From Dictyostelium discoideum (taxonomy: Eukaryota), in assembly GCA_000004695.1 (NCBI GenBank), contig CM000154.2:3584001-3648000 (forward strand): a DNA stretch of 64,000 nucleotides, written 5' to 3'. How positions within the stretch are numbered: the stretch's first letter is position 1; every line of letters starts with the position of its first letter. Made by a program: the position numbers and the translations under genes. This document shows positions 39,616 to 43,711 of this stretch, piece by piece. The notes under the pieces were generated by a model, which saw only the letters and a list, made by a program, of their open reading frames with translations, was not told where the DNA came from and searched no databases.

Positions 39616-42600
39616 ATGACATTAATATCAATAATAAAAAAAAATTTAATTGGTGTGATAATAATACTTGCAATTGGACTACATATAACATTAATATATA
39701 AATATTCAACATTCAGTTTTATAAATAATAAAAATAATAGGAATAATTTACCACCACAACATCAACAACCTTCAAATATTCAACATAATATTCAACATGA
39801 TATTCATCAAAAACCACATTATTCAAATAAACAATCACAAAAAACTCAACAACAAAATGAATCACCATTAGAAGGTCAAAAATTTATTTATTCAAAACAA
39901 AAGGAAAAGATTTTAAAATATATCGATTATAAACAATTTGGTTTATTTAATGGTGGTGGAGGTGTTATAGTTAATTCAAAGCCATCAAATACAAATGATA
40001 ATGGTGGTATTTATAAGGATTTAAATTTAAATGAATTGGATGAAATTTCATCTTGGAGTCCAAATACTATTGTTGATTTTAATAAGAGACATGGTGATGA
40101 TTCATTACCTTCAATATGTTCAGAGATTGATTTTCAAGAGATTAAAACTTGTGAAGGATCAAATTATTATCGAGCAATGGTAACACCAACACCAGTATTA
40201 GATGAGAATTCAATGAATTATACTTTGAAACCAAATTCACAATATAGAGCAAAGTTTAACTATTACCCAAGAGAATTCTCCAAACAACCTTTAATTACAA
40301 TTTTAACAGCATTTTATAATATTGAGCCCGATATATTTGAAGAATCGGCTGCAACTGTTTTTGGCCAATCACTTCAAAATTTCGAATGGGTAATTGTAAA
40401 TGATTGTTCACCAAATCAAACATTGGTTGATTTATCACTTGGAAAGTATAGAGAATTGGCAAAGATTGATCCAAGAATTGTTATTATAGATTTAAAAAAG
40501 AATGTTCGTTTACCTGGTGCAAGAAATGCTGGTGTTAAAGTTGCACGTGGTAAATATATTGTTTCATTGGATCCTGATGATATGTTTGAAAATACCTATT
40601 TGGAAAAAGCAGTTTGGTTCTTAGAAACCCATAAAGAATATACACTTTGTAATGCTTGGACTGTTGGTTTTGCAAATAAATCTTATGTTTGGAAAAATGG
40701 TTATCATAATGGTGATAGAAATTTAAAAGAAAATCAAATTACTGTTGCTTCAGTAATGAGAGTAAGTTTAATTAAAAAAAAATTTAATAAAAATTAATAT
40801 ATATATATATTAATAAATAAAAATTTTTTTTTTTAAATAGACTCAAGCATTAAGAGATGTTGGTGGATTTGATAGTAAATTAATTCATGGTATGGAAGAT
40901 TGGGATCTTTGGATAAGAATGGCTGATAATGGTCATTGGGGACATACATTAGAAGAATTTCATTTTTGGTATCGTGTTAGTCCACCAGGTAAATGGGACG
41001 CAATTGATAATTTAGCAAAGTTTAATGCATTTTTAGAGAATCAACAAGTAAAATATAAAAATGCCTATGGTAAAGGTGTTCCAAAATTATCAAGACCTCC
41101 ACAAGAAAAGATGGAAGCAGTGGATGATTTAATTCCATTTGAAAATAATTTAAAGAAATGTAGACCACGTGTACTTTTATTAATACCATACATGGAAGTT
41201 GGTGGTGCTGATCAATTCAATTATAATTTTGCTCAAGGAATGGTTTTAGATGGTTGGGAAGTTAGTATTGCTACAACCAAAACCTCTGATAATAAATGGT
41301 TCCCACAATTTGCAAGAGTTACTCCAGATATATTTATAATGCCAAGATTCTCTAAAAATACTGATCAATGTAGATTCCTTGCATATTATATTAAATCAAG
41401 ACAATTTGATGTGGTTTATGTTAGTAATTCAGAACAAGCCTATCATTATCTCTCTTATTTAAGAGCAAATGCACCTGGTCCTGCCTATATAGATTATACT
41501 CATTCAGAGACTCCAAAATGGAAAGATGGAGGTTATGCACGTTATAGTTTTGGTTCAGAGAAATTATTGGATAGATCAATTTTTGCATCGGAACATCTTC
41601 GTCAATATTGTATAAGAAGAGGTCATAATGCAAATAAAACAGCAACTGTTTTAATTGGTATCGATAGTGATAAATATGTACCAAAACCAGAGAATAGAGC
41701 AATTATTCGTAAAGAGTTGGGCTTTCCCGATAATGTTTTGGTAATTGTATTTGTTGCACGTTTAGAATCTGAAAAACAACCAGAAGTATTTGCAGAAGTT
41801 TTAAGAAGAGTTGATGAAATGGGTTATGATTTTAGAGCGATTTCAATTGGTGGTGGTTTATTATTTAATGATTTAAATGAAACTATTTCAAAGAGTGGAT
41901 TATCAGAAAAGGTTAGATTACTTGGTAATATTCCAAACTCTCAAGTATCAAAATATGTATCTGGTTCGGATGTTTTCTTCCTCCCATCAAAAGTTGAAGG
42001 TATTTCATTGGCAATCTATGAAGCTATGTCTCAACAAGTTTGTGCAGTATCAGCAAAAGTTGGTGGTCAAGCTGAATTGGTAACTCCAGATGTTGGGTTT
42101 TTAGTTGTACCTGGTACACCAACTGAAGTTGATGAATATACAGAGATCATTGCAGATTTGGCAAGTAATCTTACATTGGCATCTGAGTTGGGTAAGAAAT
42201 CATTGGAAAAAATATTGAATGGTTTCTCTGTAAAGGATACACTTCATAGAATGAAAGAAGAATTTTGTAACTCTGCCATTGTAACACGTTATACTACTCC
42301 AATGTTTACCAATAAATTATTTTCAAAACTTTCAAATGAACAAGCAGTCTTGGGTCATGAATATGAAAGAGCAATCGATGAACTTTTACCAATGTGGAAT
42401 CAACTTACATCTTTAACAAAACAATTAGCACCACCACCAACTTTAACCGAAAAAGAAATTAAACGTAAACCATCACCCTATCCATTACATAAACCAGAGG
42501 AAGTTTTAGATTCAATCAATATAACAGGTTTAAGAGTTGTAGAGAATATAATGATTGAAAAGAAAAAAGTTGATAGAAAAATGAAAATTATACTTAAAGA

Positions 42601-43711
42601 TTTTCAAGAACAATTCATTAGAAGAAATCCAAAATTTGCTGATAAACAATTGGTCCCAAATGAATTCCTTCATCAATATAATCATGGTGTTGATAATTGG
42701 GATGATGAATTACCTTATCCATATCAACAACAAGAATATGTTGCATATATTCCAAATGCATTTGTTGGTACAGGTGAATCTGCAACCATTTTCGATTGGG
42801 ATAGAGTTTTTCTTTTAAATTATTCACCAACTCAACAAGAAACCTTTACAATGCCATTAGAAGAATCAAGAATTTGTCATGTTGAAAAAACAAAAAAAAT
42901 GGTTACCCTTTTACAAAAACAATTCTCTTTTGAAAATTTTATAATAGATCAACTTCCAAAATTATCATTAGTACTTGAAGAATTAGAACTTGATCCAGAA
43001 ATTAAAATACTTGTACCATTTACAGATTTTGCTAAAACCATTATGGTTGATACATTAAAGTTCTCACCAGATAGAATCATTTATTTTAAACCAGGATCTG
43101 GTTGGGATCCATGTGTTGTTTTCTTTGCAAATACTTTATTACTTCCAACACCAATACCACCTGGTCAACCACCAAGAGAAATGATTTCAAAACTTCGTGA
43201 TTACTTTTATCAAAAGAACGATATAGATATTGTTGCTCCTATTAATAGAAATGTTATAATGTATGCCTCAAGAAAATCAACATTATCTCCATTGAGAAAA
43301 GTTTCAAATGAACAAAAAGTTATTGAAACCATTAAAAACATTTTACAATCTCAAGGTGAAGGAAAATATGAATTCATCGAATGGGATGGTTTGGAAACTA
43401 TTACACCAGAGTTGGTTCAATTATCCAGTCGTGTTAAAATTTTAATTGGTATGACAGGAGCAAATTTATTACCAATGGTAGTTTGTCAACCAAATACAAT
43501 CGTTGTAGAATTTATGCATGAAAATCCTTGGTTATCATTTTGGAGTACATCTGAATCATTACAACATGAAAATTGGATGATTCCAATTAAAGCAACATCC
43601 CATGATTCTTTAGAAATTCAAGTACCAATTGATCAATTAACAAATACTTTAAATCAAATTTTTAATCCTCAACAACAACAACAACAATCTTCTTCGTCTA
43701 ATTCCAAATAA
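39616..43711 (+). CDS. type II membrane, triple-domain glycosyltransferase: GT2 + GT4 (group 1) + GT61/DUF563-like (1339 aa; 2 exons)
   Basis: Exon 1 is 39616-40761 (signal-anchor IGVIIILAIGLHITLIY; GT2 motifs ILTAFYN...VIVNDCSPN...GARNAG...YIVSLDPDD). The donor is AGA|GTAAGT. The intron is 40762-40840 and ends AAATAG. Exon 2 is 40841-43711 in phase (..GGFDSKLIHGMEDWDLWIRM = GT2 ED..W motif; GT4 region VLLLIPYMEVGGADQ.. with an E-x7-E (EGISLAIYE); C-terminal KILIGMTGANLLPMVVCQPNTIVVEFM matching the GT61/DUF563 G.HGAGL.N..F.P...V.E signature). Confidence 0.7.

Follow-up and report, generated by a model that had tools for sequence, protein, structure and literature searches.

The pgtB gene of Dictyostelium discoideum lies on the forward strand at positions 39616-43711 of the stretch of DNA analyzed here, which comprises 64,000 nucleotides of GenBank assembly GCA_000004695.1 (contig CM000154.2, positions 3,584,001 to 3,648,000) and is referred to below as the window. 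The guanine plus cytosine (G+C) content of the window is about 22%, with coding islands near 30%, and tracts of poly-N, poly-Q and poly-K are present. The spliced product of the gene is identical at 1338 of 1338 residues to XP_635901.1 / EAL62400.1 / UniProt Q54GL6 (DDB_G0290079, D. discoideum AX4), and the database title of the XP_635901.1 entry is “hypothetical protein DDB_G0290079 [D. discoideum AX4]”. Exactly this entry, DDB_G0290079, is named pgtB in Table S5 of Tashima et al. 2026, and the main text of the same paper states that PgtB carries glycosyltransferase (GT) family 2 (GT2), GT4 and GT61-like domains (PMC13123520). Therefore, the locus is an already described gene that has been named pgtB, and the gene itself is not new.

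The gene consists of two exons. Exon 1 (39616..40761, forward strand, codons 1-382) encodes the signal anchor, a low-complexity stem, a conserved cysteine-containing region preceding the GT2 domain and the first two thirds of the GT2 domain. Exon 2 (40841..43711, forward strand, codons 383-1338 and the stop codon) encodes the end of the GT2 domain, the GT4 domain, a linker, the GT61-like module and a poly-Q/S tail. The intron between them (40762..40840, forward strand) is 79 nucleotides long, runs from GTAAGT to AG in phase 0 and has a G+C content of 3.8%. Mechanical calling of open reading frames (ORFs) yields two ORFs on the same strand, 39616-40797 (393 amino acids) and 40892-43711 (939 amino acids). 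If the intron is left in, the frame ends at a stop after 11 codons, and excision of 40762-40840 unites both frames into a coding sequence of 1338 codons plus a stop codon. The splice put forward in the original prediction, which had been made from the sequence of this stretch alone, was upheld, and its product length of 1339 residues proved to include the stop codon. In the alignment, the spliced junction (...ASVMR/TQALRDVGGFD...) is gap-free against intron-less homologs from Planctomycetes (...AMIRRDAFLDVGGFD...), and the D. purpureum ortholog has a 79-nucleotide phase-0 intron at the same codon boundary (...SVMR/TE...). In addition, a TRINITY transcript from the protosteloid amoeba Clastostelium recurvatum (P0008, 1253 amino acids, annotated as a complete ORF) carries all three modules. 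The ED..W motif of the GT2 domain (40889-40912) had been thought to be split by the intron; it lies 48 nucleotides downstream, and it is the GT2 domain that the intron interrupts.

The sole hydrophobic stretch of PgtB is a predicted type II signal anchor (39643..39699, forward strand, residues 10-28, NLIGVIIILAIGLHITLIY) with K8 and K9 just before it, in agreement with the N-terminal anchor that had been predicted. It is the only region in the whole protein in which a 19-residue Kyte-Doolittle window exceeds 1.6. Of the seven other amoebozoan orthologs, six conserve the anchor in the alignment and the seventh (P0004) is N-terminally truncated; the rest of PgtB contains conserved cysteines and nine N-x-S/T sequons. 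PgtB is thus predicted to have the layout of a type II Golgi membrane glycosyltransferase, with a single N-terminal anchor, a short basic tail and a lumenal catalytic region. Halfway along the anchor lies H23 (39682-39684). Of the six dictyostelid orthologs with an N-terminus, five share this histidine, and Gln is found at this position in Cavenderia and Clastostelium. A histidine in mid-anchor is unusual for a simple signal anchor.

The 5' end of the gene has been annotated in a second way. In newer D. discoideum assemblies, automated annotations (KAM9947998.1 and others, 1344 amino acids) begin pgtB at an upstream exon (39283-39425, MLKNNKYCQ...DLISM), which is spliced from the GT at 39426 to an AG leading into codon 43 of the AX4 model (window 39283-39741), and this splice removes the anchor. 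The upstream-exon model is probably a mis-annotation, because the orthologs of six other amoebozoan species keep the anchor, although it may represent an alternative transcript. A long (AAAT)n microsatellite (39520-39612) abuts the start codon of pgtB at 39616 and falls within the intron of the alternative annotation.

Domains were called where a Pfam family scored above its gathering score, and all the families of the predicted fusion did so. The GT2 (GT-A) module (40291..41014, forward strand, residues 226-440, interrupted by the intron) matches PF00535 at residues 229-363 (64.1 bits against a cut-off of 23.3) and PF10111 (32.5 bits against 27.3). The GT4 module, which belongs to a retaining GT-B family (41159..42274, forward strand, residues 489-860), matches PF13439 in its N-terminal half (residues 502-659, 37.2 bits against 28.5) and PF00534 in its C-terminal half (residues 668-829, 94.3 bits against 26.4). 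The GT61-like module (42527..43654, forward strand, residues 945-1320) matches PF04577 at residues 1079-1271 (57.5 bits against 27), the full model from 1 to 137 is covered, and the GT61 signature IGMTGANLLPMVVCQPNTIVVEF is found at residues 1251-1273. Comparison of the C-terminal module with the GT61/DUF563 model had been set beforehand as a check able to refute the fusion, and the module passes it by this score. The prediction of three folds has to be amended, since GT61 enzymes have a GT-B fold like GT4 (PMC13123520), so that PgtB combines three families and two folds.

The motifs on which the fusion had been proposed (LDPDD, ED..W, E-x7-E and the GT61 signature) are all present, and their coordinates were verified. 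The GT2 module contains D263, LDPDD at residues 318-322 (nucleotides 40567-40581) and GMEDWDLW at residues 399-406 (nucleotides 40889-40912). The GT4 module contains GGAD at residues 503-506, R689/K694 and E768-x7-E776 (nucleotides 41996-42022). In an alignment of 12 sequences from amoebae, Rhodotorula and Planctomycetes, D263, D319-x-D321-D322, E401-D402-W403-D404 and GGAD 503-506 are invariant, and the GT4 residues R689, K694, E768 and E776 are likewise invariant. Because the catalytic motifs do not vary across these 12 sequences, from amoebae to bacteria, the GT2 and GT4 active sites both look intact. Matches to PDB sequences were found for the GT2 module in GalT1 (5hea, 3.6e-11) and chondroitin polymerase (2z86, 1.7e-6), and for the GT4 module in PimB' (3oka, 7.6e-13), BshA and MshA. 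The folds of these two modules were assigned from the Pfam and PDB sequence matches, and structure prediction covered residues 925-1338 only.

An AlphaFold2 (AF2) model of residues 925-1338, calculated from a nine-sequence alignment, reached a predicted local distance difference test (pLDDT) score of 83.7 and a predicted template modelling (pTM) score of 0.84. When this model was compared with the PDB by Foldseek, the top 16 matches were all POMGNT2 (expectation values (E) 1.5e-9 to 1.7e-7, probability 1.0), and no match other than POMGNT2 was found below 1e-3. The template modelling (TM) score of these matches was only about 0.4, which is probably due to the orientation of the lobes and to extra domains. 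A sequence profile searched against PDB sequences also identified POMGNT2 (1.4e-5) and EOGT (2.5e-4). Judged from the model, the third module has a GT61-type GT-B fold. POMGNT2 (6XI2, 7E9J/K) and EOGT (9WJK) share with the PgtB module the Pfam family, the two arginines that contact the phosphates of uridine diphosphate (UDP) and the N-E that follows them, and for POMGNT2 also the fold as detected by Foldseek. However, their identity to the PgtB module is 10-14%, and their acceptors are proteins whereas that of PgtB is a polysaccharide.

When the C-terminal module was used by itself in a word-based homolog search, one fragment was all that came back, and stand-alone relatives emerged only through an exhaustive hidden Markov model (HMM) search, which found 4284 relatives. 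The nearest of these outside the Amoebozoa are chlorophyte proteins with GT61 and Ephrin_rec_like domains from Chloropicon primus (A3770_02p16930, our P0140), Picocystis and Micractinium, which match over nearly the full length at E values of 1e-39 to 1e-42. The chlorophyte proteins belong to the same F/Y-R-R subgroup as the PgtB module according to Tashima et al. (PMC13123520), but they differ from PgtB in having cysteine-rich repeats, in lacking GT2 and GT4 and in keeping both conserved histidines. Elsewhere, the GT61-like module is found standing alone or fused to FkbM methyltransferase or alpha-amylase domains. An H-E/S-N-P-W-L-x-x-W motif (43517-43546, residues 1275-1284) stands right after the ‘VEF’ strand of the C-lobe and shows no variation among the amoebozoan PgtB orthologs, that of Clastostelium included. 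This motif is missing from the chlorophyte and other GT61 relatives and is thus lineage-specific.

The residues expected in a GT61 active site are known from work on EOGT. N245, R372 and R377 of EOGT (N163, R294 and R298 of POMGNT2) bind the UDP phosphates, and the substitutions N245D/Q and R372K/L abolish activity (Tashima et al., PMC13123520). H248 of EOGT (H166 of POMGNT2) has been proposed as the catalytic base; it is reported not to vary within GT61, and H248A has markedly lower activity (PMC13123520). From their own AF2 model, the same authors gave the triad of PgtB as F-R-R rather than N-R-R, and they raised the possibility that the F/Y-R-R variant hampers the binding of UDP-sugar (PMC13123520).

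In our alignment, the arginine half of this site is kept. R1193 (43271-43273) and R1201 (43295-43297) are invariant and are aligned to R294/R298 of POMGNT2 and R372/R377 of EOGT, the region reading ...YASR-KSTLSPL-R-KVSNE... in PgtB, ...FSRT-QNR-LILNE... in POMGNT2 and ...LAR372STEYR377KILN... in EOGT. N1205-E1206 and E1272 are retained in PgtB as well, and an acidic residue (D/E) is conserved at position 1085, in the column of a family-invariant Glu. The N-lobe motif of the relatives is “YYHF..E.LPR”, and its His column is occupied by His in each of the 16 aligned relatives other than PgtB, as well as in the two sequences from Clastostelium. Counted over the whole alignment, 18 of 22 relatives, Clastostelium included, have His in this column. 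All seven dictyostelids have (F)-S-F/Y-x-N-F in its place, with Asn at 1081 (N1081, nucleotides 42935-42937) replacing the family His and E, S, G or T at 1080. The Asn of the N-R-R triad is absent from the dictyostelids, in which positions 1077-1079 are F-S-F/Y. For comparison, the corresponding segment is G-I-N245-M-Y-H248-H-F in EOGT and Y-N-A-Y-G-H-F in Clastostelium. The second family His, that of H-G-A-G-L (EOGT H426; MHGAQL in POMGNT2), is replaced by Thr (T1254) in all dictyostelids, whose motif is G-M/I-T-G-A/S-N-L; Clastostelium has GPHGQNL. A profile of the N-lobe alone matched no relevant chain among the PDB sequences, and the whole-module and broader profiles aligned the C-lobe only. 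In either of two registers differing by one residue, no dictyostelid has a His at 1080/1081 or an Asn at 1077-1079.

Among dictyostelids, the GT61-like module is 49-54% identical, compared with 69-76% for GT2 and GT4. Because identity of 49-54% persists, the alignment indicates that the module is under constraint. Canonical GT61 catalysis by it is doubtful, because the family-conserved Asn and both His appear to be missing in all seven dictyostelids.

Full-length orthologs containing all three Pfam families were found in D. purpureum, Polysphondylium violaceum, Tieghemostelium lacteum, Cavenderia fasciculata and Synstelium polycarpum, and also in one further EukProt dictyostelid and in Clastostelium. 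Because the Clastostelium ortholog carries all three families, the domain content indicates that the GT2+GT4+GT61 fusion predates Dictyostelia. Among the homolog-search matches, PF04577 occurred together with GT2 and GT4 in amoebozoans only, and fused multi-GT proteins as such were very common in bacteria. Thus, the rarity that the original prediction had claimed for triple-GT fusions holds for this particular combination in the databases searched and fails for multi-GT fusions in general. It had also asked whether the modules occur as separate genes elsewhere, and the stand-alone GT61-like proteins show that they do.

The top non-amoebozoan matches to the GT2-GT4 part were proteins of about 830 amino acids from Planctomycetes and metagenomes (E 1e-155, 38% identity, 55% query coverage). 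The Planctomycetes proteins (P0010-P0013) resemble PgtB in the 38% identity over the entire GT2-GT4 part, in a helical extension after GT4 and in all catalytic motifs, but they are without the membrane anchor, the stem and the GT61 module. The next-best relatives were Rhodotorula proteins of about 950 amino acids (32%). In two of these (P0014 and P0016), at 28-32% identity, a hydrophobic N-terminal anchor precedes a GT2-GT4 part that carries the same motifs; however, they too are without the GT61-like module, and they are farther from PgtB than the Planctomycetes proteins (313 against 538 bits).

The genomic surroundings of P0010 bear on the same question. Its gene directly follows genes for ABC2_membrane (Wzm), ABC_tran+Wzt_C (Wzt) and a 948-amino-acid methyltransferase. 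Such a layout is typical of polysaccharide loci that depend on an ATP-binding cassette (ABC) transporter, where fused GT modules polymerise the chain. A GT61/DUF563 gene beside P0010, which would be a sign of evolution from operon to fusion, was sought and none was found within 10 kb. The 948-amino-acid protein encoded before P0010 (locus L001, 7046-9892, forward strand) has two methyltransferase domains, and a PMT_2 (GT-C-like) protein is encoded after P0010. By analogy with O9a-type systems, the 948-amino-acid protein may be a chain-terminating methyltransferase, which bears on how the ancestral cassette worked. Bacterial GT2-GT4 fusions use a lipid carrier and work at the cytoplasmic face; PgtB, by contrast, has a predicted lumenal location.

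By sequence similarity, the GT2-GT4 cassette probably derives from bacterial polysaccharide enzymes of the ABC-transporter type. A more detailed history can be drawn, which is less likely than not to be right. PgtB would be a chimera in which a bacterial GT2-GT4 polymerase was captured by an ancestral amoebozoan, an anchor moved the cassette to the secretory lumen, and the cassette was then fused to a eukaryotic, chlorophyte-like ‘F/Y-R-R’ GT61 module. The catalytic Asn and His would have been lost on the stem of Dictyostelia after the split from protosteloids, and the module would now be non-catalytic or non-canonical in the synthesis of the spore-wall polysaccharide.

The product of this pathway is indicated by earlier papers on sporulation. 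According to Yamada et al. 2018, “the poly-glycosyltransferase pgtB” is among the spore-wall synthesis genes whose promoters are bound by the sporulation transcription factor SpaA, with a citation of West 2009 (PMC5923282). Another paper states, citing West et al. 2009, that the spore coat contains a galactose-rich heteropolysaccharide (PMC11795075), and the abstract of a third describes gal/galNAc polysaccharides secreted by prespore vesicles (PMC2115956). These sources tie pgtB to a spore-coat heteropolysaccharide of galactose and N-acetylgalactosamine (Gal/GalNAc), which agrees with the cell-wall polysaccharide that the original prediction had offered as an alternative; the cited product is a polysaccharide and not the short heteroglycan or Golgi O-glycan that it had also proposed. 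In the 2009 study by West et al. (Eukaryot Cell 8:27), strains in which either pgtB or pgtC was disrupted reportedly lacked the Gal/GalNAc heteropolysaccharide, and their spores were reportedly fragile when exposed to detergent or to hypertonic conditions. The polysaccharide was reportedly described there as branched, and pgtC is reportedly a second gene that is also required for it.

Very probably, then, pgtB (DDB_G0290079) encodes a type II membrane protein that is lumenal in the Golgi and prespore vesicles and takes part in the synthesis of the spore-coat Gal/GalNAc heteropolysaccharide, most likely as an alternating GT2-GT4 polymerase with a GT61-like module that may be non-canonical or non-catalytic. 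The catalytic modules would face the lumen of the Golgi and of the prespore vesicles. There, GT2 (inverting, GT-A, with DxD and an ED base) and GT4 (retaining, GT-B, with E-x7-E) would form a two-site polymerase, adding beta- and alpha-linked sugars in alternation as the fused GT modules of ABC-transporter-dependent bacterial polysaccharides do. We infer such an alternating two-site polymerase, by analogy, because the GT2 and GT4 sites appear intact, the nearest homolog is found in a Wzm/Wzt context and the literature label is ‘poly-glycosyltransferase’. The GT61-like module would either act as a branching transferase of a non-canonical kind or bind nucleotide or glycan without catalysis, and the balance tips slightly toward a non-canonical or inactive module. 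The present analysis establishes which gene this is, its exon structure, the families of its domains, the conservation of its motifs and the fold. The link to the spore-coat polysaccharide is taken from the literature, and what is said of alternating polymerisation, of a bacterial source and of the state of the third module is deduced.

Several points weigh against this interpretation. First, the register between the N-lobe of PgtB and N245/H248 of EOGT is uncertain by one residue and was constrained from EOGT primer sequences. Secondly, a shift of the register would leave the loss of catalytic residues standing, yet this loss is read from sequence alignment. Third, the direction of transfer from bacteria to amoeba is read from hit ranking only. 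Fourth, the knockout phenotype is taken at second hand, from papers that cite the 2009 study. Lastly, any assignment of linkages to modules is tentative.

The role of the GT61-like module can be explained in other ways. The explanation with the best prospects, which stands at somewhat under an even chance, is that the dictyostelid module is a pseudo-glycosyltransferase with a nucleotide or glycan cleft, which would hold the acceptor, govern chain length or act as a scaffold for the GT2-GT4 polymerase. The Asn and the two His are lost in all seven dictyostelids, whereas Clastostelium keeps both His and an Asn in the motif; the fold is retained in the model at high confidence; and the module is less conserved than GT2 and GT4 (0.49-0.54 against 0.69-0.76). 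However, neither the two arginines that bind phosphate nor the NE motif vary, and a pure scaffold would not require this much conservation. The apparent losses in the N-lobe are also subject to the one-residue uncertainty of the register.

A less probable explanation, although one to be taken seriously, is that all three modules are active, one polypeptide making three linkages of a branched polymer, with the GT61-like module adding a beta-linked branch by means of a base other than the canonical His. Conservation of the module at 49-54% identity across Dictyostelia with many invariant positions would fit this explanation, as would the retention of R1193, R1201, N1205, E1206, E1272 and the acidic residue 1085 in the family-invariant Glu column. 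A branched polysaccharide, as reportedly described in 2009, would also call for linkages of more than two types. However, EOGT N245D/Q is inactive and EOGT H248A markedly reduced (PMC13123520), and dictyostelid PgtB has neither the Asn nor either His. The EOGT authors themselves consider that F/Y-R-R may interfere with the binding of UDP-sugar (PMC13123520). The original prediction of three linkages made by one enzyme is thus unproven, the dictyostelid module being without both the Asn of N-R-R and the His proposed as catalytic base. Further linkages need not be the work of PgtB, given that pgtC is said to be required as well.

Weakest of all, and effectively refuted, is a mis-joined model of two separate genes, one for a GT2 fragment and one for GT4-GT61, which is favored by the two mechanically called ORFs (393 and 939 amino acids) and by the presence of the exon-2-only 939-amino-acid product (P0130) in an automated collection, but is opposed by the canonical GTAAGT..AG ends, 3.8% G+C and kept frame of the intron, by its conserved position, phase and length in D. 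purpureum, by the gap-free restoration of the GT2 domain relative to bacterial homologs, by the start of exon 2 within the GT2 domain and by the full-length transcript known from Clastostelium.

The neighbors of pgtB in the window encode a sortilin/Vps10 protein, a thioesterase, a Lines-like protein and an SPX-Ank-CBM20-GDPD protein. The sortilin/Vps10 membrane protein (PF15902, PF15901, BNR; 43939-45972, reverse strand) is encoded tail-to-tail with pgtB. It is found in the same orientation next to the D. purpureum ortholog (locus L002, 5817-7084, reverse strand), and local synteny is therefore conserved. A functional link between pgtB and its neighbors was considered and rejected, since the locus is eukaryotic and only the sortilin neighbor is syntenic in D. 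purpureum. Two adjacent ORFs on the forward strand encode an SPX domain, just under the Pfam threshold (52614-53861), and ankyrin repeats with CBM20, a GDE1-like C2 domain and a GDPD glycerophosphodiesterase domain (53988-57371). The two are probably exons of one SPX-Ank-CBM20-GDPD gene. Five other long ORFs of 333-1092 amino acids (17688-20966, reverse strand; 27509-30136, forward strand; 31212-32921, reverse strand; 35742-36743, reverse strand; 48186-49463, reverse strand) had no Pfam match at E<=1e-3, and they may encode low-complexity Dictyostelium proteins.

As a discovery, pgtB carries little weight, because it is a named gene whose knockout was published in 2009 and whose GT61-like domain was discussed in 2026. 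Three points are new: GT61 active-site residues have been lost specifically in the dictyostelids, the polymerase cassette resembles that of Planctomycetes, and recent automated annotations seem to have dropped the signal anchor. Reading the GT61-like module as having lost these residues refines the published account and does not overturn it. Two apparently intact sites, together with a third module that has the UDP-phosphate arginines and is without the Asn and His that EOGT and POMGNT2 require, provide a mutagenesis-ready hypothesis for the assembly of the spore-coat Gal/GalNAc polymer. The Planctomycetes-like cassette suggests, in addition, that bacterial O-polysaccharide machinery was the source from which a eukaryote recruited a synthase for a cell-wall polysaccharide.

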